Part shown: in pieces, positions 9,227 through 54,977 of the stretch
Numbering within the stretch: position 1 is the first letter of the stretch
Layout of the letters: every line of letters starts with the position of its first letter
Origin: Bacteroidales bacterium
GTDB taxonomy: Bacteria; Bacteroidota; Bacteroidia; Bacteroidales; UBA3824
Length of the DNA: 64,000 nt
Assembly: GCA_045597465.1 (NCBI GenBank)
Contig: JAZLKG010000057.1
Coordinates: 21,979-85,978 of the forward strand
Reading direction: 5' to 3'
Notes under the pieces: generated by a model
Told to the model about the DNA's origin: nothing
The model's input: the letters and a program-made list of their open reading frames with translations, nothing else
The model's database searches: none
Made by a program: the position numbers and the translations under genes

Positions 9227-9239
9227 GTACAAAATAATT

Positions 9240-9280
9240 TTTTGCCCAATTCCCGCAAATACATTATCTTTGTAGCAATC
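9240..9280 (+). promoter_or_regulatory. 40-bp promoter cassette, copy 1
   Basis: TTTTGCCCAATTCCCGCAAATACATTATCTTTGTAGCAATC. TTTG at 9241-9244 and TATCTTTG at 9265-9272 (20-nt spacer) match the Bacteroides -33/-7 consensus. ATG follows at 9308. Confidence 0.75.
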
Positions 9281-9307
9281 AAAAAATCCATAAATCGAAA
9301 ATCAAAA

Positions 9308-10876
9308 ATGAAGACACTGCCATTAGGAACACAGACATTCCAGATTCTACGTGAGGAAGATCAGTTGTATGTCGATAAGACAAGATACGTATATGACCTT
9401 ACCCACTTTTACCGCAACGTCTTCCTCTCGAGGCCGAGGCGTTTCGGAAAGTCGTTGCTGTGCGATACCTTCAAGATGTATTTTGAGGGCAGGAAGGATA
9501 TGTTCCAAGGGCTGGCGATTATGGATCTGGAGAAAGACTGGAAGAAGTATCCGGTGATTCATCTGGATCTGTCGCTCCGCAAGGACAGTGCCGAGCGTCT
9601 CAGAAAATCATTGGGAGAACTTCTCAAGGATTATGAGGACATTTACGATATTCCAGTGGATGCGTCACGTGAGGTTTCGGACCGATTGAGTTCAATTATC
9701 AAGACAGCCTACCGTAAGACAGGCAATCGTGTAGTTGTTTTGCTTGACGAGTACGATGCCGCTCTTATGTATGCAGTTGACAACAAGGAACTTTTCGCCG
9801 AAATAAGGAACGAACTAAATGATTTTTTCACTCCACTGAAAAAACTTGATTCCTGCATAAAATTCCTCTTCATAACTGGAATTTCGAAATTCTCGCAGGT
9901 TTCGATATTCTCGGCGCTCAACAATCTGGTGGATATCAGCCTTGATCCAAAGTATGAGGGTGTCTGCGGATTCACCAAAGAAGAGATGCGCAGGGATTTC
10001 CCTGAGTATGTCCAAATAATAGCAGACAAATACAATTGCGATTTGGAAACTGCGTATGAGGAACTTAGGAAAAATTATGATGGCTATCATTTTTCTGAGG
10101 AAATGACCTGTGATGTCTTCAATCCTTTCAGCATTCTCAATGCTTTCGACAAGCGGAAACTCAATTCTTTTTGGTTCGATTCGGCAAGTCCTTCGGCATT
10201 GATAAAGTTGGTTGATAAGTTTGATTTGAATATCGGAGATTTGGAGAATTGTGAAGCCGGTCTTGACAGTTTCTCTGTGCCTATCGAGAGTATCGATGAT
10301 CCGATTCCCTTGCTTTTTCAGTCGGGATATCTTACCATCAAGGATTATGATATGGAGGTTGATAGTTATACACTCTCATATCCCAACAGGGAAGTGCGTG
10401 TGGCATTGGCAAAGCAACTTTTGCAATACAAGACCAAGAATCCACCCGAACTCACCAACTTCTCCAATAGTTATAAGGCTTTTTGGAAGAGTGACGATCT
10501 TGACCGTTTCCTTCTCAGTTTCAAGGCATTCTTGAAGGGATTCCCGTTTTCGCTCAACAATTCAGATAAGAACGAGAAGCATTATCACGGCCTTCTCTAC
10601 ACCGCGTTGGTTTCTTTCGGCGCTGACGTCTTTGCCGAGAAGGAGCAGTATGAGGGCAAGCCTGATATCATCCTCAAAATGCCGAATACAATCTACATTC
10701 TGGAGCTGAAGTACGGGAAATCTGTCGGCACGGCCCTGTCTCAGGCCAAGAAGAAAGACTATGCCGGAGAGTTCGCCGACGACAAGCGTCCTGTTAAAAT
10801 TGTCGGAATCAACTTCCTGGAAGAGGAGGTTGAGAACGAGATTTTCAAGTATAAGGTGAAGGTAGTGAGGGAGTAA
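9308..10876 (+). CDS. AAA-ATPase-like protein with C-terminal PD-(D/E)XK nuclease domain (PF09820 + PDDEXK_9-type architecture)
   Basis: Start MKTLPLGTQTFQILREEDQLYVDKTRYVYDL. P-loop-like RPRRFGKSL. C-terminal KPDIILKMPNTIYILELKYGKS (D...ExK). The upstream 34 codons of the tracked ORF overlap the promoter cassette. Confidence 0.8.
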   Translation: MKTLPLGTQTFQILREEDQLYVDKTRYVYDLTHFYRNVFLSRPRRFGKSLLCDTFKMYFEGRKDMFQGLAIMDLEKDWKKYPVIHLDLSLRKDSAERLRKSLGELLKDYEDIYDIPVDASREVSDRLSSIIKTAYRKTGNRVVVLLDEYDAALMYAVDNKELFAEIRNELNDFFTPLKKLDSCIKFLFITGISKFSQVSIFSALNNLVDISLDPKYEGVCGFTKEEMRRDFPEYVQIIADKYNCDLETAYEELRKNYDGYHFSEEMTCDVFNPFSILNAFDKRKLNSFWFDSASPSALIKLVDKFDLNIGDLENCEAGLDSFSVPIESIDDPIPLLFQSGYLTIKDYDMEVDSYTLSYPNREVRVALAKQLLQYKTKNPPELTNFSNSYKAFWKSDDLDRFLLSFKAFLKGFPFSLNNSDKNEKHYHGLLYTALVSFGADVFAEKEQYEGKPDIILKMPNTIYILELKYGKSVGTALSQAKKKDYAGEFADDKRPVKIVGINFLEEEVENEIFKYKVKVVRE

Positions 10877-10886
10877 GCATCAGGAA

Positions 10887-11498
10887 ATGAGCGTATTCTT
10901 CATTCCTGAGGAACATATTGTTGCTCAGTATTATATTATTGATTTTAACTTAATGTGGTGCGGAATTAAGGAAATGATTAAAGGAAGTTTTTATTTGTTT
11001 AGTATTAGCGGCTTTTGGATAGCATTGGTTTGTTTGATCGTTGGTATTTGGCAAGGAAATACATTAATAGTATTTACAGCGATTATAGGTCATTTGGCTC
11101 TCCTTGGTTACGCTATATATCTTTGTAGTGAGGAAAATGATAAAACAGAACTATTTATAAAACTCAACAAGGATTATATTGTCTTGAAATCATTTGAATC
11201 ATATAGATTTTATTTTGCTTTTTTTGAAGGTCGGAGAGAATATGTCATATTTGAGATTGATGGATACAGATATCTTGTAACTATTCTTGATAGGAAATTG
11301 TCTTTGGCAGTTTTTAAATTTGAAATTGATGAAATTAATGAAAGAAATGCCTATATAAAGATTAGGGAACGTTTTAAAGGTGGCCCGACTGGAGAATGGA
11401 ATTATCTTAGGGATAGTTATGCTAAGTCATATATTAGCATGATAGATTTTAAAGATCTTATTAAAGAATATAGAACAAATAAAGAGCAAGTGCAATAA
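10887..11498 (+). CDS. hypothetical membrane protein (2 predicted TM helices), very AT-rich
   Basis: 203 aa, starting 10 nt after the preceding stop. Hydrophobic segments FYLFSISGFWIALVCLIVGIW and LIVFTAIIGHLALLGYAIYLC. No family recognised. Confidence 0.6.
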   Translation: MSVFFIPEEHIVAQYYIIDFNLMWCGIKEMIKGSFYLFSISGFWIALVCLIVGIWQGNTLIVFTAIIGHLALLGYAIYLCSEENDKTELFIKLNKDYIVLKSFESYRFYFAFFEGRREYVIFEIDGYRYLVTILDRKLSLAVFKFEIDEINERNAYIKIRERFKGGPTGEWNYLRDSYAKSYISMIDFKDLIKEYRTNKEQVQ

Positions 11499-11506
11499 AT
11501 AATTTA

Positions 11507-11545
11507 TTGCCCAATTCCCAGAAATACATTATCTTTGTAGCAATC
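11507..11545 (+). promoter_or_regulatory. 40-bp promoter cassette, copy 2
   Basis: TTGCCCAATTCCCAGAAATACATTATCTTTGTAGCAATC. -7 box TATCTTTG at 11530-11537. ATG at 11564. Confidence 0.7.
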
Positions 11546-11563
11546 AGAAAATCGAAAATCACT

Positions 11564-12580
11564 ATGGTAACAATTGCAAATCCGATATATGACTCGGTCT
11601 TCAAGTATCTGATGCAGGATACGAGAATTGCGAGACTCTTGATTGAGAACCTTTTGGGATATCCTGTAGAGGATGTTGTGGTCAAGAACAACGAGTTCAT
11701 TCTGATAGATATAAATGAGCTCAAGCTCAGCCGTGTGGATTTTCAAGCCAAGGTAAAAATCTCTGATACTGAGACTCAGCTTGTTACCATAGAATTGCAG
11801 AAGGCTTTCCTCGATACTGAGTATATGAGATTTCGCCGTTACTTGGGCGAACACTATATCAACAACGAGAACTGCGTCTATAAGACTGTTGAGAAGATAA
11901 ACCCAAAGACGGGTGAGAAGTATCTGAAAATCGAGGAATATCCGAATCCAATAATACAGGTTTACCTCCTCGGTCACAACCTTCCCGAGATAGAGAATGC
12001 AGTTTCCAAGAGTCAGCTGAAATTTGTTGACCTTGACGGCAATGAAATCAAAGATGCAGGCAAGTCGCTCTTTGTGAAGAGCCTTACCCATCAGACCATA
12101 ATAGTCCAGATAAAGAAACTGCCTCAAAAGCCAATGCATAAATTGGAGGACATTCTCTCCATCTTCAATCACGAGGCCATTTTCCAAAACAAGGAGGAGC
12201 AGACCGTAAAAATAGAGGACTACTACGGCAAGTCGGAGGAGTATCAGATAATGGCCCGCCGCCTTCAGGAGGCCGCCGTTGACGCTGAGCTCCGCAAGAT
12301 GATGAAAGAGGAGGACGACCTTTGGCGAGAATACCGTCTTATGAAAGAGAACGAGCGCCTGAGAATGCAGGCAGCGGAGGCAAGGGGCGAGTCGAGAGGA
12401 TTGGAAAAAGGTCGTGCCGAGGGTATTGCCGAGGGCCGTGCCGAGGCTGAGGCCAAAGCCCACGAGGAGAAATTAGCTTCCGCCCTTGCGATATACAAGT
12501 CCGGCTCGATGCCGTTGGAGCAGATTGCGGCTATTATGAAGTTGGATGCCGGGGAGCTTGCTGAGTATGCGGGCAGGTGA
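11564..12580 (+). CDS. Rpn-family (YhgA-like, PDDEXK_2) recombination-promoting nuclease / putative transposase
   Basis: MVTIANPIYDSVFKYLMQD... N-terminus typical of the Bacteroidales PDDEXK_2 family. RVDFQAKV...TIELQK nuclease core. Charged coiled C-terminal tail (EGRAEGIAEGRAEAEAKA). Confidence 0.8.
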   Translation: MVTIANPIYDSVFKYLMQDTRIARLLIENLLGYPVEDVVVKNNEFILIDINELKLSRVDFQAKVKISDTETQLVTIELQKAFLDTEYMRFRRYLGEHYINNENCVYKTVEKINPKTGEKYLKIEEYPNPIIQVYLLGHNLPEIENAVSKSQLKFVDLDGNEIKDAGKSLFVKSLTHQTIIVQIKKLPQKPMHKLEDILSIFNHEAIFQNKEEQTVKIEDYYGKSEEYQIMARRLQEAAVDAELRKMMKEEDDLWREYRLMKENERLRMQAAEARGESRGLEKGRAEGIAEGRAEAEAKAHEEKLASALAIYKSGSMPLEQIAAIMKLDAGELAEYAGR

Positions 12581-12846
12581 TGAGAAAGTACCGAGGCCAT
12601 TCAGACAAATTCAGTAATTTTACCTTCGGTAATCATAGCGATTTTTTTGGTAATTTGTTTTGTCGTTATTACAAAGATGCTAAAAATTTCGCTAATTACC
12701 AAATTTTCAGTCACTTAAATTTAGTCGAACTCACGTTAAATTGATAAAAAGCAAACAAATACCATATATCAATACGATTGGTGAACAAGTTTTGTTTGAT
12801 GGATTGGAAGCATATTCAGAGGATTATATTATAGATTTTATAAAAA

Positions 12847-13764
12847 ATGTTACAGACTTATAACAAATTGTTAAATATTAAGCCAATTTGGGTGTCCATT
12901 TTAGGATGTGTGCTTACGTTGTTTTTACATGTTAACCCCAATACTTTGTCATTGTCATTAATAATAATGTGGTTGTTTTTTGCCGCATTATATATATATG
13001 AACATAATGACTTTATTTATAAAAAAAGTATTTTTGATAATATGTTTATATTGTATTTAATAATAATTATTGTATGTGGTATTGGGGTGATAGAATATTA
13101 TTGTCAACGTGTGAAGTCAAATGAAGGAATTGTGTGTGTAGGTTATGCATATAATAGTATGCAAGAATCTCGTTCTCATTGTATGGTGTATTATATGTAT
13201 TATTATGACAAAAATCTTAAATTAAATAAAGTTAAGGTTAATGGTTACTCCCAACACATAGATTTTAATACAAATGTTGTAATTTCTTTAGGAGGACCTC
13301 GTGGTAATTATATCAAGACAGCTAATCCAACGTGGAATGATTTAGAAAAATATAAATATCCAGTAAATTTTATAATGGATTCTGTAGAGCTCGGCAACGA
13401 CTCCTACGAATATGCGAAATATGAGCGAGATATCGCTTACAATAATTTTGGACTAAATATTGTTCAAATTGCAAATACGTTGAATGATGATGAAATATCA
13501 TTTATGAAATTAAATGGTATTTCAGAGACTATAAAGTGTAGGAATAATGGCACAGACACTTTCCTCGTCTATTCCAACATTAACCCGAAATTTTTCGATG
13601 GCTGGCACGTCTGCCCCGACAGCATCAGCACGCCGGAGAATTTCGCCAAGATAGAGGAGGGTGGATACGGCTATATCTTCCGAGGAAAGATATATTCCAA
13701 GGAAGAGACCGAGAAGTACTGGAATATCATCGAGCAGTACAAGCTGAGAGAGGCAGGGGAGTAG
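12847..13764 (+). CDS. hypothetical 3-TM membrane protein, paralogue A (conserved C-terminal module)
   Basis: 305 aa with three N-terminal hydrophobic helices. The C-terminal DTFLVYSNIN...VCPDSISTPENFAKI...GYIFRGKIYSKEE module is shared with 13844-14755. Confidence 0.65.
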   Translation: MLQTYNKLLNIKPIWVSILGCVLTLFLHVNPNTLSLSLIIMWLFFAALYIYEHNDFIYKKSIFDNMFILYLIIIIVCGIGVIEYYCQRVKSNEGIVCVGYAYNSMQESRSHCMVYYMYYYDKNLKLNKVKVNGYSQHIDFNTNVVISLGGPRGNYIKTANPTWNDLEKYKYPVNFIMDSVELGNDSYEYAKYERDIAYNNFGLNIVQIANTLNDDEISFMKLNGISETIKCRNNGTDTFLVYSNINPKFFDGWHVCPDSISTPENFAKIEEGGYGYIFRGKIYSKEETEKYWNIIEQYKLREAGE

Positions 13765-13776
13765 GGTAGAATAATT

Positions 13777-13816
13777 TTTTGCCCAATTCCCACAAATACA
13801 TTATCTTTGCAGCAAT
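13777..13816 (+). promoter_or_regulatory. 40-bp promoter cassette, copy 3
   Basis: TTTTGCCCAATTCCCACAAATACATTATCTTTGCAGCAAT. TTTG at 13778-13781 and TATCTTTG at 13802-13809. ATG at 13844 or 13853. Confidence 0.7.
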
Positions 13817-13843
13817 GGGAAGCCTCTTTTATTTAATAGTTAA

Positions 13844-14755
13844 ATGTTAGAAATGAAGAAATATTTTCATTGGATATGGTGCGCTATTTGGATTGTATGC
13901 GCATACTTATATGGGGTATATATTACCTCTCTGTGTGAATATGCTATTTGGACAACAATAGCAACAATTTTGTTTGTAATTTCTGCTATTGTTATGCCAT
14001 TCTTTTTCAAAAAGCATTTCGCAGGCTTTATAATAGGACCGATAGTTTCTGTTTTTATTACTTCGTTTTTGACAAGCGACAACATTTCAAAGAGATTGAT
14101 AGACGGTCCTACTTTTATATGCAAGTTTAATGTAACAGGATATGATCGTCCTAAGGGTCGTAGCTCTCTAGTTACTACTTTGGGGTATTATCATATTGGC
14201 AAATCGAAATATGAAAATGGAGTTAGCATAAATGATAAATTCCCTCAGGTTGAATGGGTTTATGTTCAATACAATTTTGTATGCAAAACTATGCTGCATT
14301 TGTACAGAGAAAAGGCTACTGACGAAGAAATAGAAAAAATCCGTGACTTCGCTTTTGTTGAAAACAATACCTTGTATACCTATCACGATTACTCGATGCT
14401 TCAGCCAGACTTGGACTATTATCAAGTAGGTTACAATTTGGTTTATAAGGCTGTTCCCGACAGCCTTGACAATCTTCGGTTCTCCGATGCTCTCGGTAAA
14501 CAACAGATCACAAAATACGAAAAACAGAACTACACCTCCATCCCCGACACCTTCCTCGTTTTCCGCAACATAAACGAGAATATCGACGACCGTTTCATAG
14601 TCTGCGCTCCCGAGGTAAACACTCCCGAAAACTGGGCGAAGATTTCCGACTATGGATACATTTTCCATTACGACGTCTATTCCAAGGAAGAGATCGAGAG
14701 CCAGTGTCAGCAGATAAGAAATTATGTGGAGAAGTATAAGGAGCTTCACAAATAA
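13844..14755 (+). CDS. hypothetical 3-TM membrane protein, paralogue B
   Basis: 303 aa with three N-terminal TM helices. C-terminal DTFLVFRNIN...VCAPEVNTPENWAKI..GYIFHYDVYSKEE module. The start could also be the ATG at 13853. Confidence 0.65.
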   Translation: MLEMKKYFHWIWCAIWIVCAYLYGVYITSLCEYAIWTTIATILFVISAIVMPFFFKKHFAGFIIGPIVSVFITSFLTSDNISKRLIDGPTFICKFNVTGYDRPKGRSSLVTTLGYYHIGKSKYENGVSINDKFPQVEWVYVQYNFVCKTMLHLYREKATDEEIEKIRDFAFVENNTLYTYHDYSMLQPDLDYYQVGYNLVYKAVPDSLDNLRFSDALGKQQITKYEKQNYTSIPDTFLVFRNINENIDDRFIVCAPEVNTPENWAKISDYGYIFHYDVYSKEEIESQCQQIRNYVEKYKELHK

Positions 14756-14768
14756 GCTCCCCAAACCC

Positions 14769-15710
14769 CTACTCTCTTCCCATCACCTTCTTGTACCCCC
14801 GTCGCCCCCAGACAAGCACAAAAGCGAATAGCAATCTTGTGCTGATAATCCATAATGCTGATATTCCCGTAACGGCCATTACAATGGTGTCCTCAAGCAT
14901 GGAGTGATTCATTATCAAGTGATAGTTTACGTCGTTGGCGTCCTTGCGGGTGATGAGGCCCTTCGATTCCAAATCCACCATCACTGCCGATCCGTAACTG
15001 ATGCCAAGCACATTGCCCACCAGCCACATATACGACGATTCCCTGGGAAGACCCATCACTGTCATCAGCGGGGCAAAGAACCTCGACATTGGCTTCAGCC
15101 AGCCGTAAGCCTCTATCAGGCGCTGGATAAACATTAGCGAGTAAATTATGCCGAACACCATGAGCACGGTTTTTATCTGCGACCATCCCCACTGCGCCAT
15201 CACCTCGCCGAATGTGCTGTCGGTATCAGCGCCAAGATATACGTACGCCTCGTCCATCTCGGGAAGCAGAAGATTAAGGTAGAGGGCTGATACAAACGCC
15301 ATTACGATTCGGATGAGGCCCATCTTCCAGAACGACGAGCCTGTCTTCCTGTTTATGGAGCATTCCATGGGCAACGCGTGGCATATCAGCACCATTATGC
15401 CCATTATGGTGGCCTGACGCATGGTCATAGGTATAGCCATCATAGCCGCTACTCCCGAGTATGTACCAGCCATGGCTCCCGATACGAACACTATGGCAGC
15501 CTCGCCGGGCAATCCCATGAAGTTGAACACAGGGTTCAGGTATCCTGCCAGCCATGCCAGCACTCCGAAATACTGGAGCAATACCACCGCCAATGATATA
15601 GGTATCATAAGTTTAAGGAGCCACGATGCGCTCTTCCATGTGCCGGGAATGGCCTGACGGAGACTCCATATAATCTTGTTGCCTGTAATGGGCTGTTCGT
15701 TTTCTTTCAT
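14769..15710 (-). CDS. nucleoside-recognition (Gate) domain membrane protein
   Basis: 313 aa polytopic membrane protein. It resembles the two-Gate-domain, FeoB-associated / spore-maturation-like family by overall pattern. Confidence 0.6.
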   Translation of the reverse strand: MKENEQPITGNKIIWSLRQAIPGTWKSASWLLKLMIPISLAVVLLQYFGVLAWLAGYLNPVFNFMGLPGEAAIVFVSGAMAGTYSGVAAMMAIPMTMRQATIMGIMVLICHALPMECSINRKTGSSFWKMGLIRIVMAFVSALYLNLLLPEMDEAYVYLGADTDSTFGEVMAQWGWSQIKTVLMVFGIIYSLMFIQRLIEAYGWLKPMSRFFAPLMTVMGLPRESSYMWLVGNVLGISYGSAVMVDLESKGLITRKDANDVNYHLIMNHSMLEDTIVMAVTGISALWIISTRLLFAFVLVWGRRGYKKVMGRE

Positions 15711-16654: not shown

Positions 16655-17323
16655 ATGAGAAAAATAATCACAACTTTACTGCTTGGCATCCTCTCATTCG
16701 GATGCATGGCTCAGGAGGACGACGAACCATCTTGGCCAAGTCTTCCCTACGGCTACCAACATGACGAACTCTGCAAGCCCCACAAGGTGACTGGCGGAGC
16801 AGGCATCGTGCATTTTATGGAGGCTATCGGTATGGATTATTGCGACGGGGACGATCCCGAATCAGAAAACTGCATAGTTGACAAGGCCAACGGCTATTAC
16901 AAATTCTCGCAGGAGGGCGGTGGCGGAATCCACATAGAGGCTGCCTACTGGAACCGGTCGGATGGCAAGAAGATGCTTATTGTCAATTACCACGTTTGCA
17001 ATTTCGGCCACGGCGACCACGCCGCCAAACTTCAGAAGGAGAATGAGTGGTTTAAGCTGAAGGTAGACAACACCACCAAGAAAGACTTTATGTACGACGA
17101 GATAGGCTGTATGGCCTTCCTCTACAACGCCACCACCCAGAAACTGGAGCCCATGCTGAAACCTCCATTCAACGGGGTGCCAAAGACCGACGATTTCATC
17201 TATATCTATCCTCCCCGAAAGGGCAAGGATATCAAGGTCAGCCTTTGGAACAGGGAGACTTACGGCGAAGGCAACGAGCACACTCTCAAGTTCAACGGAT
17301 TGACCTTCGATTGGGTGGAGTAG
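16655..17323 (+). CDS. lipoprotein, unknown family (paralogue 2)
   Basis: 222 aa. Lipobox ILSFGC. Shares DKANG(F/Y), WNR.DGKKM, PPFNGVPKTD and HTLKFNGLTFDWV blocks with the preceding gene. Confidence 0.7.
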   Translation: MRKIITTLLLGILSFGCMAQEDDEPSWPSLPYGYQHDELCKPHKVTGGAGIVHFMEAIGMDYCDGDDPESENCIVDKANGYYKFSQEGGGGIHIEAAYWNRSDGKKMLIVNYHVCNFGHGDHAAKLQKENEWFKLKVDNTTKKDFMYDEIGCMAFLYNATTQKLEPMLKPPFNGVPKTDDFIYIYPPRKGKDIKVSLWNRETYGEGNEHTLKFNGLTFDWVE

Positions 17324-17340
17324 AGACGCCGCAATAGTTT

Positions 17341-17356
17341 AGGGTCAGCTGACCCT
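17341..17356. repeat. perfect 16-bp palindrome AGGGTCAGCTGACCCT followed by A9
   Basis: Read directly from the sequence. Located 17 nt upstream of the ATG at 17373. Confidence 0.9.
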
Positions 17357-17372
17357 AAAAAAAAATGAAAAT

Positions 17373-19667
17373 ATGAGGAAACCACTTCTGATACTTGCAC
17401 TATCCACACTCTGCGCAATAAACACCATGGCGCAGAGTGTGAGATATTTTAGAGACTATGTGGAGAACATGGGTCTGCCAATGGGCGTGGGCGAGATGAG
17501 CGCCAGCGACCACCTTCACGCATACAACGCATACAAGTTTATGTACAACGGCAGCCGGCTAGATTCCATTGCGCTGGTGAACGCAGAAGACCGCCCCGTG
17601 GACTTCTACGACACCGAGCATCTGGACTCGTACAGGGCCGCCAAAATATCATACTCACAGGACGGCAAGCCAGAGTGCATTACAGCATACTCCAGCACAG
17701 GAGAATTTATGTACAAGCTGATGCTGAGCCATGACCTAAAGAGCGCAACCTACAGAAACACAGACTCGTCGCCGTATTTCCTGAGGCTTGGCGTATCGGC
17801 ACATTACGGAAACTTGCAGAGCAAAGGCAGCATCAGCTCGCTGATACTGTCGTATTACCCCAATGGCAACCTCAGGAAGAAAATCTTTGCCGACAAGGAC
17901 GGAAATCCTGCCGCCGACGCCAACATGATATACGGCATAGAATATTCGTACAACAGCAGCAACTTGATGACGAGATACAGTTTCTTAGACGAGAAGGGCA
18001 ACATTGCACAAACCTACCAAGGCCACGCCTCCACCAAGATAGAATACGACAAGCATGGCAACCGCACACGATTTGCGTATCTCGACAAAAACAATTCACC
18101 ATCGCACGACGGCTCCATGATTTCGGTAATAGAGAATGAGTGCGACAAGTACGGCAACCTCCTGAAACAGACCTACAAAAACATGAAAGGCGCGCCAATG
18201 CTGCGGCCCGACATAAACGTGGCCGCCATGGAGATAAAATACGACAACCAGGGCCACAGGATACAGACCTCGTATCTGGGGCTGGACGGAAAACCCATCT
18301 GCAACAACGGCGGGGTGGCCTATGAGCAATACAAGACCGACCAATACGGATACGCCTGCCAGACCAACTACTACAACCTGGACGACATTCCCACATTCAA
18401 CCGCAACTCCGGCGCCTTTGCCAGCAAGCAGCAATACGACACCATGGGCAGGCTTCTGGAGGCAACACTGCTGATGCACAACAGCAAAGACAACGGGCGC
18501 AACATAGCCAGCATCCGGCACGAATACAACAACGATGGAAAGCTACAGAAAACCTCATATTACGACGGGTATCAGCGTCCAGCGCTTGGCGACGAGGGTT
18601 TCCACATGGCAGAATACACCTACAACGGGAAAAACCAGTTGATAGAAACCAGATATTACGGCACCGACGGCAGACCGGCAAACAACAGCTACGGCGAATC
18701 CATATTAATAACCGAATACAACGAATACGGCAACATTGCCTCGCAGAGATGCCTCGACACCCTAAGCCGCAAAACCATGCATCAGGATATGTTCTACTCG
18801 CTTATATGCAGCTACGACGGGCAGGGCCGCCTTGTGGAAAGGCTGTTTCTCGATACATTGGGCAATCCATCGGCAAGCGCCAGCTATGCGAAATGGACCT
18901 GCCAGACCAACCCTGAAACCGGAGCCACAATTAGCGAGAGCCTCTTCAACAGATGGGGCAGCGAGATACAAACCACCCGATACGAATACAACGATTGCGG
19001 CCTCCATTCCCAGATACAGCAGATAAGCAACGGCGAGGTGATGGGCTACACAAGATTCACCTACCACCCCGACGGAAGAACGGCCAGCAAGTGCGTTTTC
19101 CAGAACGGATATCAGCGCCCTCATGTTACCAGATACGAGCTCGACAGGTGCGGAAACGTGGTGAAAGAGTCGTTTTTCAATGAGGACGGAAGCATCGACA
19201 CCATAGAATCGGGAATGCACTGCGTAGAGCACACCTTCAACTCCCTGCAGCTGAAAACCCACACCATCTACAGGGACGTAAACGGAGCATCGCGCCCAAT
19301 GACGAAGGTAAACAACGAGATGAGTTTCGAATACGACGAGAAGGGAAACCTGATAAAAAGCACCGTGCTGGACGGCAAGGGCAACATTGCCACCGGCATT
19401 GATGGATGGAGCATTCACGCAATAGAATACAACGAGCGAAACCAGCCCATTTTATACGAGTTTGCCAACAAGGACCTCAAGCTTGTGGTATCACAAAGCA
19501 CGAGATGGGCAAGAATGAGGATAAAGTACATGCCCGACAACACCACTCCGCACATGAGGCTCATCTACAACGCAGAAGGCAAGCCCTTCGCCATGTCGGT
19601 ATACAGCAAGGGCGATTGGAGCGAATGGCTCACCGAAAACGACCTTCAGCAGATGCACAAAAATTAA
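17373..19667 (+). CDS. secreted YD/RHS-type repeat protein without recognisable toxin tip
   Basis: 764 aa with a signal peptide (AINTMAQS). Many degenerate YD units (EYDKHGNRTRFAY, KYDNQGHRIQTSY, EYNNDGKLQKTSYY, SYDGQGRLVERLF, EYDEKGNLIKSTV). I see no PxxxxDPxGL-type RHS core end or C-terminal effector. Confidence 0.7.
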   Translation: MRKPLLILALSTLCAINTMAQSVRYFRDYVENMGLPMGVGEMSASDHLHAYNAYKFMYNGSRLDSIALVNAEDRPVDFYDTEHLDSYRAAKISYSQDGKPECITAYSSTGEFMYKLMLSHDLKSATYRNTDSSPYFLRLGVSAHYGNLQSKGSISSLILSYYPNGNLRKKIFADKDGNPAADANMIYGIEYSYNSSNLMTRYSFLDEKGNIAQTYQGHASTKIEYDKHGNRTRFAYLDKNNSPSHDGSMISVIENECDKYGNLLKQTYKNMKGAPMLRPDINVAAMEIKYDNQGHRIQTSYLGLDGKPICNNGGVAYEQYKTDQYGYACQTNYYNLDDIPTFNRNSGAFASKQQYDTMGRLLEATLLMHNSKDNGRNIASIRHEYNNDGKLQKTSYYDGYQRPALGDEGFHMAEYTYNGKNQLIETRYYGTDGRPANNSYGESILITEYNEYGNIASQRCLDTLSRKTMHQDMFYSLICSYDGQGRLVERLFLDTLGNPSASASYAKWTCQTNPETGATISESLFNRWGSEIQTTRYEYNDCGLHSQIQQISNGEVMGYTRFTYHPDGRTASKCVFQNGYQRPHVTRYELDRCGNVVKESFFNEDGSIDTIESGMHCVEHTFNSLQLKTHTIYRDVNGASRPMTKVNNEMSFEYDEKGNLIKSTVLDGKGNIATGIDGWSIHAIEYNERNQPILYEFANKDLKLVVSQSTRWARMRIKYMPDNTTPHMRLIYNAEGKPFAMSVYSKGDWSEWLTENDLQQMHKN

Positions 19668-19670
19668 AAC

Positions 19671-19703
19671 AAAAGCACACAGGCCATTGGCCTGTGTGCT
19701 TTT
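19671..19703. terminator. bidirectional hairpin terminator (YD-repeat gene / gmhA convergent)
   Basis: AAAAGCACACAGGCCA (19671-19686) pairs perfectly with TGGCCTGTGTGCTTTT (19688-19703). Confidence 0.75.
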
Positions 19704-54104: not shown

Positions 54105-54977
54105 TCATGCCCTTGGATGGGCCTTGCTGTATGTTCCTTTCAGCTGCTCATACGATGTATGAGTGTATATCTGCGTGGCCGACAGGTTGGCGTGCCCAAG
54201 CAGCTCCTTTATCGCATTCAGCGGAGCGCCGTTGTTGAGCATCGATGTGGCGAAACTGTGCCTCAGTGTATGGGGACCAGTGCGGGTGATGCCCTGAGTG
54301 CCTTCCAGATATTTATGTACTATCCTATATACGAGTTTGGGATACATTTTGTTTCCTTTTCCAGTAAGAAAAATGAAATTTTCTTTGTCTCCCGTCTTCA
54401 GAGCCGACAGACGCTGACACAAGTCCTTGGTTATTGGCACCTTGCGTGTTTTGCCGCCCTTGCCGTGCACCGTAATGGCCAGCATTATCTCGTCCACATC
54501 GCAGCACCTTATATTAATAAGCTCGGTTTCACGGATTCCTGTATCGTAAAACAGCTCTATTATAAGCCTGTTGCGGACGCCGTCCTTGTCGCCGGCAAAG
54601 AGGTCGTCGTTGTCCAGCATGTCGTTCATCTGCTCCTCTGCCACGAACTCAGGCAGGTGTCTGGGTTTCTTCAGGTTTCTGAGACCCTGGGCCGGACTCC
54701 TGTCTATCTGTCCGGTCTTCAGCATCCACTTGTAGAAGCCCCTCAGGGTGGATATCTTGCGGTTGAGGGTTACAGTGCTCTGTCCCTTCTGCCTCAGCGA
54801 CGATATCCAGGAGCGTATGTACTTGGTGTCTGCCGATATCAGCTCGCCATGGCCGCACTCAGTTTCCATGTAATCCCTGAACTCGGCCAAATCGGTAAGA
54901 TAGGCCTTCACAGTGTTCGGACTGTAGCGCCGCTCGTATGTAAGGTAATCGCCAAACTTGGCTGTTGCGTCTTCCAT
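54105..54977 (-). CDS. tyrosine recombinase, XerC/XerD family
   Basis: 290 aa. N-terminal SAM-like domain (YLTYERRYSPNTVKAY). Catalytic residues in GIRETEL, HTLRHSFAT and LGHANLSATQIYTH. Confidence 0.88.
   Translation of the reverse strand: MEDATAKFGDYLTYERRYSPNTVKAYLTDLAEFRDYMETECGHGELISADTKYIRSWISSLRQKGQSTVTLNRKISTLRGFYKWMLKTGQIDRSPAQGLRNLKKPRHLPEFVAEEQMNDMLDNDDLFAGDKDGVRNRLIIELFYDTGIRETELINIRCCDVDEIMLAITVHGKGGKTRKVPITKDLCQRLSALKTGDKENFIFLTGKGNKMYPKLVYRIVHKYLEGTQGITRTGPHTLRHSFATSMLNNGAPLNAIKELLGHANLSATQIYTHTSYEQLKGTYSKAHPRA

Follow-up and report, generated by a model that had tools for sequence, protein, structure and literature searches.

Membrane-protein genes of gut Bacteroidales in which AT-rich bodies have very probably been exchanged on a conserved C-terminal module

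We analysed a 64,000-nucleotide (nt) stretch, hereafter the window, of contig JAZLKG010000057.1 (positions 21,979–85,978; assembly GCA_045597465.1; Bacteroidales, UBA3824), which contains a tandem pair of genes from one family of predicted membrane proteins: gene 1 (12847–13764; 305 amino acids (aa)) and gene 2 (13844–14755; 303 aa). Both these genes lie on the + strand, as do the helices, barrel, mid motif, C-terminal modules, replaced segment, header, dispersed repeat, accessory island and Rpn-like gene placed in the window below. The two open reading frames (ORFs), which are just as a preliminary description of the locus had given them, are intact and co-oriented. Gene 1 is a type-1 family member, supported by 34 homologues, by the alignment of type-1 members (A1) and by an AlphaFold2 model with a mean predicted local distance difference test score (pLDDT) of 86; gene 2 is a type-2 member, supported by 65 homologues and by the alignment of type-2 members (A3). 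A BLASTP match between the two proteins is confined to the C-terminal ~120 residues (36% identity, E 3e-16). The preliminary description had them aligning clearly only over the last ~70 residues; identity is indeed densest there, but the match extends further. A near-identical nucleotide stretch that it had pointed out, TATTCCAAGGAAGAGA[C/T]CGAG, is real, occurring at 13693–13713 in gene 1 and at 14678–14698 in gene 2, and 0 of 100 shuffles gave two matches.

The model of gene 1 consists of three transmembrane (TM) helices, a beta-barrel at residues ~93–160 and a C-terminal alpha/beta domain. The helices (residues 13–29, 33–53 and 62–88; 12883–13110) were placed by DSSP on the model, by hydropathy and by A1, and are hypervariable across the family. 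Three N-terminal helices had already been proposed, and the model agrees, as does hydropathy, which gives three segments in 43 of 53 family members. The barrel (13123–13326), also variable, is weakly reminiscent of an oligonucleotide/oligosaccharide-binding (OB) fold: Foldseek returned local matches to the OB-folds of SSB and PriB with probability 0.96–0.98, E ~0.1 and a target-normalised template-modelling score (TM-score) of ~0.5. In the alpha/beta domain, a conserved mid motif, ELGNDSYEYAKYERDIAYNNFGLNIV (codons 181–206; 13387–13464), is followed by a variable hairpin and by the type-1 C-terminal module, or tail (codons 237–305 plus stop; 13555–13764). The mid motif is delimited by A1, by GC content at third codon positions (GC3) taken block by block and by the change points given below; the tail is delimited by its GC3 (0.72), by nucleotide identity and by its proportions of nonsynonymous and synonymous differences (pN and pS). 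In gene 2, the type-2 module starts at D235, reads DTFLVFRNINEN...YGYIFHYDVYSKEEIESQC... and occupies 14546–14755 (A3; GC3 0.63–0.67). The shared C-terminal module first described is a conserved tail, as claimed, with two refinements: the tails of genes 1 and 2 fall into two different sister subfamilies, type 1 and type 2, respectively, and there is a second conserved block, the mid motif.

Base composition had been said to switch inside each gene, and it does so at synonymous sites. The window's own genome (4.14 Mb, GC 47.3%) has a median GC3 of 0.64 over its 2,410 ORFs of at least 250 aa. In gene 1, GC3 is 0.17–0.40 over codons 1–240 and then 0.70–0.77 over codons 241–305; in gene 2, it is 0.23–0.40, climbing to 0.63–0.67 from about codon 211. 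GC is not uniform in a sliding 150-nt profile either: gene 1 remains at 0.19–0.33 up to ~13525 and is at 0.49–0.51 afterwards, and gene 2 shows a slower rise from 0.33 to 0.44–0.47. As a control, the last 69 codons were compared with the remainder for each of the 2,410 ORFs. The GC3 step of gene 1 (0.25 to 0.72; +0.47, ~5.7 standard deviations) ranked first, that of gene 2 (+0.29) sixth and that of a third family copy, on contig C28 of the same genome, eighth. The tails are host-like in GC3, and the bodies are within the lowest few percent of the genome. A local GC3 bump is also seen at the mid motif (ELGNDSYEYAKYE..., codons 181–206). For 15 distinct type-1 genes, which served both for GC3 by block and for comparing the histories of bodies and tails, mean GC3 was 0.21 in the TM helices and barrel, 0.30 in the mid motif, 0.23 in the variable hairpin and 0.47 in the tail, and the tail exceeded the adjacent hairpin in 15 of 15. 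Bodies are AT-rich throughout the family (GC3 0.13–0.32), and tail GC3 is spread over 0.22–0.74.

The exchange of a body is seen directly by comparison with L025, a contig of assembly GCA_045598505.1 that is syntenic with the window. By blastn, L025 1–1032 matches window 11669–12736 at 90.8% (an Rpn-like gene and the repeat downstream of it), and L025 1771–3335 matches window 13554–15128 at 95.6% (the tail of gene 1, gene 2 and a convergent Gate-family gene). Between these matches, 817 nt in the window (12737–13553, comprising the 110-nt upstream region and codons 1–236 of gene 1) and 738 nt in L025 have no similarity detectable by blastn, and the two bodies are ~34% identical as proteins. The alignment switches at the codons GAC ACC TTC CTC (D237-T-F-L): nucleotide identity goes from ~45% to ~97% at codon 236/237, synonymous sites included, both against L025 and against L001, another locus of the same relative. 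At L001, the same tail (~97% over the aligned tail codons) is attached to a third, unrelated body, behind the gene of a large protein considered below. In contigs from gut metagenomes, the flanks of the replaced segment are covered, the gene 1 body has zero depth, and several different continuations are found past 12739–12741. The right-hand junction of the swap is at the first tail codons, and the left-hand one is where a dispersed repeat ends. This repeat, R (12590–12745), lies downstream of the Rpn-like gene, has three copies in the window's own genome and very high contig depth in metagenomes, and its right end coincides with the left breakpoint at 12736. A swap of the body onto a fixed C-terminal handle, as the preliminary description had envisaged, is thus directly visible in the synteny with L025, with identity returning at 13554/13555, and divergence is far from uniform along the gene, passing from an unalignable body to a tail at ~97%.

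Bodies and tails are discordant elsewhere in the family, and in both directions. Five pairs combine the same tail with different bodies (window/L001, window/L025, L001/L025, L034/L037 and L032/L002a), and others combine the same body with different tails (L034/L035, with nucleotide identity of 0.87 in the body and 0.71 in the tail; L038/L022, 0.99 versus 0.91). Among 75 strongly heterogeneous pairs, the maximum chi-square method put change points at codons 160–199 in 37 pairs and at codons 220–239 in 22, with concentrations at codons ~176–181 and ~236–240; in several such pairs, identity on the right-hand side is 0.92–1.00. These change points also register shifts in constraint and are by themselves no proof of recombination. 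We therefore place the crossover sites in the conserved blocks, one at the mid motif and the other at the start of the tail. Clustering of breakpoints at the module boundary is thus found, at codons ~236–240 and with discordance both ways; the additional cluster at codons ~176–181, within the gene, had not been foreseen. Tail-only remnants (the last ~40–45 residues, in frames of 77–79 aa) stand behind unrelated genes in several genomes of the genus. At L018 and at L019 (5893–6123 in each), a 77-codon frame holds only the end of a type-1 tail, behind an unrelated 161-aa gene, and further remnants are found in G001:C24, G005:C20, G008:C264 and G020:C19.

Between subgroups, the tails are near-identical as proteins, yet 60–75% identical as DNA. 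Over 105 pairs of tails, median pS is at saturation, at 0.81, against a pN of 0.16; in a 29-codon core, pS is 0.85 and pN 0.06. Saturated pS together with a near-invariant protein indicates that the tail is conserved at the protein level, under strong constraint. By these measures, the tail is ancient and is neither a nucleotide element nor merely a recent copy. For gene 2 and its orthologue in L025, the ratio of nonsynonymous to synonymous substitution rates (dN/dS) is ~0.15.

Taken together, the alignments make it very probable that the genes are mosaics made by homologous recombination, in which AT-rich bodies are exchanged and the tail is kept. The same pattern might be ascribed to selection and mutation with no exchange of cassettes: the body would have diverged through AT-biased mutation, together with diversifying selection or relaxed constraint, and the tail would have been preserved by purifying selection. 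The tail is indeed under strong purifying selection, and maximum chi-square change points do mark constraint shifts too; such an account is nevertheless scarcely credible when unalignable sequence gives way to 97% identity at one codon, synonymous sites included, though the flanks are 91–96% identical, when bodies and tails are discordant both ways, and when the GC3 step of 0.47 is beyond the reach of amino-acid selection. As to composition, we infer that the tail has either been resident long enough to acquire that of the host or been enriched in GC through repeated gene conversion. In the former case, bodies would be re-imported repeatedly from an AT-rich pool common to the genus, while resident tails drift to host composition; in the latter, GC-biased conversion at the crossover sites would have raised tail GC3.

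Neither gene 1 nor gene 2 has a match above threshold in Pfam, NCBIfam or PADLOC, in keeping with a family that the preliminary description had not recognised, and literature searches found no description of the family. Among 5.8 billion proteins, 34 matched the gene 1 query and 65 the gene 2 query, all of them unnamed or 'hypothetical' and from metagenome-assembled genomes (MAGs) of Bacteroidales in rumen, yak, goat, horse and other gut samples; with a profile, only 89 matches were obtained among 1.8 billion representatives. In a sample of 25 genomes from the window's genus and 16 from other families of the order, the family was present in 15 of the former, with 1–15 matches per genome, and in none of the latter. 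It consists of two sister subfamilies (A1 and A3) built on one plan: three TM helices in a hypervariable N-terminus, then a middle that is hypervariable too, a conserved block, ~30 variable residues and a near-invariant tail. For type 1, the consensus of the conserved block is ELGNDSYEYAKYE.DIAY.NFGLNIV and that of the tail is DTFLVYSNINP.F.DGWH.CP....T.EN.AK....GYGYLFRGKIYSK.ETEKYWNIIEQYKLR; the type-2 tail consensus is DTFLVYRNINEK.D..WHVCAPEVNTPENRAKISDYGYIFHYDVYSKQEIESQCP.IK.YVE.YKKR. The 65 homologues of gene 2 show the same pattern of variable body and constant tail. Searched with Foldseek, the full gene 1 model gave nothing at E ≤0.001 in the PDB and one marginal match in BFVD (E 9.9e-4, TMq 0.17), and the C-terminal domain modelled separately (pLDDT 79.5) gave nothing at E ≤0.001 in the PDB. 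The module therefore matches no known domain in Pfam, NCBIfam, PADLOC or the Foldseek searches. One 548-aa ORF (L046; G003:C72:2076–3722) resembles two family-like units arranged head to tail, whose tails are more divergent (…GSGFVFNDTILTQEEL…); these tails, like those of the copies on contigs C28 and C79 of the window's own genome, indicate that more distant tail types exist in the family.

At several loci in relatives (L001, L010, L015/L044 and L023/L024), the gene directly upstream of family genes encodes a large protein of 1053–1523 aa with a zincin-type motif (HELGHG.AGL.H...NLMDY). The gap between the two genes is 7–11 nt (10 nt at L001 and at L010, 7 nt at L023), and at L015/L044 they overlap by 26 nt. 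Family genes behind the large protein often form tandem pairs, as in the window, and at L002 and L022 they are preceded by truncated remnants of its C-terminus. The large protein has 131 homologues of 616–1897 aa, which have ~400 residues (~36% of the query) in common at 50–92% identity and diverge completely just past the zincin region (...LMDY...WHFQWD.IQDPSR). The large proteins of L047 and L048 are 88–92% identical over ~400 residues and then unrelated; the genes that follow them (209 aa and 378 aa, at a distance or overlap of 4 nt) are unrelated as well. Where a family gene follows, the C-termini are all homologous to one another and make up a single class, with 25–65% identity. A pore-forming C-terminus of the glycine-zipper kind was considered and rejected: the hydrophobic Gly-rich segment is an insertion in two of five aligned C-termini. 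The whole genome of the window has no large protein and five family copies. At L045 (G001:C30:169–3330, minus strand), a single frame of 1053 codons runs from the conserved zincin-motif N-terminal part of the large protein into a complete type-2 family member with its TM helices; this is either a genuine fusion or the result of a lost stop or of a sequencing or assembly error in the MAG.

From this gene arrangement, the most likely biology would be polymorphic toxin/immunity cassette exchange, with a fixed 3′ module inside the gene on the immunity side. That the family proteins are immunity-type partners of the large zincin-motif proteins is a tentative assignment, to which we give somewhat less than an even chance; for the whole explanation, comprising recombining mosaics, a pool of AT-rich bodies and immunity-type orphan copies, we regard the chances as about even. 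Relatives have the layout of an immunity gene, the family gene being immediately downstream and co-oriented; the window itself does not. The candidate partner likewise has the layout of a polymorphic toxin, with a conserved N-terminal part and unrelated C-termini that each have their own downstream gene (131 homologues; L047 and L048). Because their own genome has no large protein, the copies in the window look like orphan immunity genes. If so, the family proteins would pair with one C-terminal class of large polymorphic-toxin-like proteins; specificity for the variable toxin end would lie in their variable TM and barrel part, the contact of their invariant tail would itself be invariant and might be the conserved zincin region, and the window copies would be orphan protectors retained in an accessory island. 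The preliminary description had stressed that polymorphic toxins have the opposite layout, with a conserved N-terminus and a variable C-terminus. This is correct for the family genes, yet the large proteins upstream of them in relatives do show the toxin layout. The opposition is probably the key, as the variable toxin end and the variable family body would then make up one contiguous variable stretch. A stronger version, in which the N-terminal part of the large protein and the family 3′ module act as a two-sided bracket around one variable stretch (toxin C-terminus plus partner body), seems rather doubtful. Under such a bracket, toxin specificity and the matching protector would always travel in a single double crossover, the raised GC3 of the tail would stem from repeated conversion tracts that begin there, and the neighbouring Rpn-like nucleases might promote exchanges.

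Several observations weigh against the immunity reading and the wider explanation built on it. The large protein has nothing in Pfam, NCBIfam, PADLOC or a PDB sequence search except weak metalloprotease matches in its conserved part, and its C-terminal region has no recognisable toxin domain in Pfam, NCBIfam, PADLOC or the PDB; nor was a secretion route identified. Co-variation of the large-protein C-terminus with the family body is no more than suggestive (65% versus 44% identity in one informative pair and 54% versus 26% in another, the pairs being few). By the positive-inside rule, the membrane orientation is ambiguous (lysine plus arginine counts of 1.8, 0.8, 1.9 and 2.05). The tendency of tail GC3 to rise with the GC of surrounding DNA is weak (rho 0.55, p 0.07) and comes from non-independent points. 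PDDEXK_2/Rpn-like genes, which number 26 per genome and make up <1% of genes, are within one or two genes of the family at no fewer than six loci. A near-invariant tail is unusual for immunity proteins, and the in-frame fusion of the large-protein N-terminal part to a full family member in G001:C30, unless it is an error, would suit a structural partner better. The latter two points, together with the tight coupling of the genes (gaps of 7–11 nt or overlaps), could mean that the family protein is a structural or maturation partner of the large zincin-motif protein, such as a membrane anchor, a chaperone or an export/activation subunit; its tail, as fits a conserved docking partner, would dock on the conserved region of the large protein, and orphans would be decaying leftovers or serve other paralogues. 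We consider such a partnership unlikely in view of the five family copies in the window's genome, which are intact and under purifying selection without a large protein, and of the tandem arrays, toxin-end remnants and hypervariable bodies that are the usual signature of immunity cassettes. Less probable still is a defence-island module, in which a three-TM membrane effector or sensor would act against phages or in abortive infection with PD-(D/E)XK nucleases (Rpn-like, DUF1016, PDDEXK_9) and phages would drive the variation of the bodies. The AT-rich accessory island with its presence/absence variation would accord with this, as would the PDDEXK_2/Rpn-like genes near family members at six or more independent loci and the PIN and RhuM genes close by at some; against it stand the lack of a PADLOC match for any component, a nuclease type that varies between loci and is missing at L023, and the fact that no nuclease adjoins the family as closely or as regularly as the large zincin-motif protein does.

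Cassettes of polymorphic toxins are usually described as having a single conserved edge, and polymorphic toxin systems were reportedly classified by Zhang et al. in 2012. Contact-dependent inhibition (CDI) loci, with cdiA-CT/cdiI, and Rhs-CT/immunity loci are polymorphic toxin-immunity loci with orphan modules and toxin-end remnants. The candidate system seen here resembles them in its large protein, whose conserved N-terminal part gives way abruptly to unrelated C-termini, in the small gene closely coupled to it downstream, which changes along with the C-terminus, in its tandem arrays, truncated toxin-end remnants and orphan copies in toxin-less genomes, and in exchange by homologous recombination. 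It differs in that the family protein has a conserved C-terminal module of its own, so that the variable stretch is bracketed on both sides; moreover, no toxin domain, trafficking domain or secretion system was identified here. Immunity proteins of colicin DNases work by dual recognition, with a conserved anchor in helix III and a variable helix II. They likewise combine a conserved anchor and a variable specificity element in one small protein, and are unrelated to the family in sequence and fold; the family proteins, unlike them, are membrane proteins whose parts are separate recombining gene segments. Immunity proteins of pore-forming colicins have three to four TM helices, and Staphylococcus aureus TsaI adjoins TspA. 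Such polytopic proteins are also small and multi-TM, encoded right after the toxin gene and often present in several variable copies, but they do not have a large soluble domain bearing an invariant tail. Finally, acquired interbacterial defence (AID) islands of Bacteroidales, including the recombinase-associated rAID-1 type, are mobile arrays of low GC in which orphan immunity-type genes all run in one direction and intergenic sequences recur (Ross et al., 10.1101/471110; PMC12247911), and rAID-1 is defined by a gene for an XerD-like tyrosine recombinase at the 5′ end of the array (10.1101/471110). The island in the window is similar in its co-directional low-GC genes, repeated intergenic 52-nt header and horizontal mobility. 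Membership of rAID-1 was rejected, as no XerD-like recombinase heads the island and the nearest tyrosine recombinase is ~40 kb away. Further differences are that the family genes are not homologous to known immunity families of type VI secretion systems (T6SS) and that the hosts here are herbivore-gut taxa.

As a natural case of cassette exchange within a gene, the locus is clean: both junctions are mapped to within a few bases, and the contrast between AT-rich bodies and a host of higher GC reveals the exchange by composition alone. It also suggests that Bacteroidales of the rumen and hindgut have an undescribed system that looks like a polymorphic toxin system, in which a large zincin-motif protein has C-termini that can be exchanged and is accompanied by small downstream proteins of several classes; Pfam, NCBIfam and PADLOC contain none of these proteins. 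Should the tail prove to be an anchor or a downstream recombination edge, ideas on immunity specificity and cassette mobility would have to be revised, and a downstream edge built into an immunity gene would be a new design. The tail would also serve as a sequence handle with which metagenomes could be searched for whole repertoires of variable bodies.

Genes 1 and 2 belong to an AT-rich accessory island (10878–14769), delimited by composition and by comparison with genome G002, which also comprises a 203-aa TM ORF and an Rpn-like gene. In G002, the flanks (92–95% identity) join window 10877 straight to 14770, so that the 3.9 kb of 10878–14769 are an indel; in G006, the Rpn-like gene is followed directly by the Gate gene, without family genes. 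The genes of the island are co-directional, and their GC, tails excluded, is 0.19–0.43 versus 0.47 for the genome. A promoter-like header of 52 nt with a TAnnTTTG core, which is Bacteroides-type (…CCCAATTCCC..AAATACATTATCTTTG…), lies between genes 1 and 2 (13770–13821) and thus ahead of gene 2; a copy with 90% identity precedes the Rpn-like gene (11498–11549), a 28-nt match to the core is found at 9245–9272, ahead of an AAA-ATPase/PDDEXK_9 gene, and blastn finds 6–8 copies in the genome. Repeat R holds an inverted partial copy of the header core (12658–12678 versus 11531–11551). Its other copies, C18:142817–142962 and C68:3509–3596, are each followed by a gene for a small TM protein, which on C68 belongs to type 2 of the family and is separated from the repeat by an inserted IS110-like transposase gene. 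No tyrosine recombinase gene is near the island, the PF00589 matches being on C2, on C86 and at C57:76125–76625 (window ~54147–54647, ~40 kb off). An integron cassette was rejected, there being no attC-like inverted repeat near the gene ends and no nearby tyrosine recombinase. The target of a diversity-generating retroelement (DGR) was rejected too: no direct repeat of the variable body was found in 10800–14850 (reverse transcriptase was not searched genome-wide), and the DGR reading is disfavoured because the variation is whole-segment replacement and not adenine-specific substitution.

The Rpn-like (PD-(D/E)XK) gene directly upstream of gene 1 (11507–12580) is assigned by a weak TIGR01784 match, and PDDEXK_2/Rpn-like genes are also found beside family genes at L002, L010, L018, L020, L022 and L047. 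It is a compositional mosaic itself, with GC of 0.35–0.45 up to ~12170 and 0.51–0.60 in its charged C-terminal tail, and its counterpart in G006 matches (91%) only up to 12387 and has a different tail thereafter. At the same locus of G006 (L042), the AAA-ATPase/PDDEXK_9 gene and the 203-aa ORF (window 9238–11496) have given way to ~3.2 kb of unrelated DNA, flanked by a glycoside-hydrolase gene and the Rpn-like gene, which marks the spot as a replacement hot spot. The 203-aa ORF (10887–11498), in the part of the island absent from G002, has GC of ~0.27–0.33, two or three hydrophobic segments and nothing above threshold in Pfam, NCBIfam or PADLOC. Beyond the island, G002 is without the gene for a 764-aa YD-repeat protein (17323–19698), its flanks joining ~17322 to ~19699 with 36 nt between, and the two lipoprotein paralogues upstream of this gene are ~74% identical in G002.

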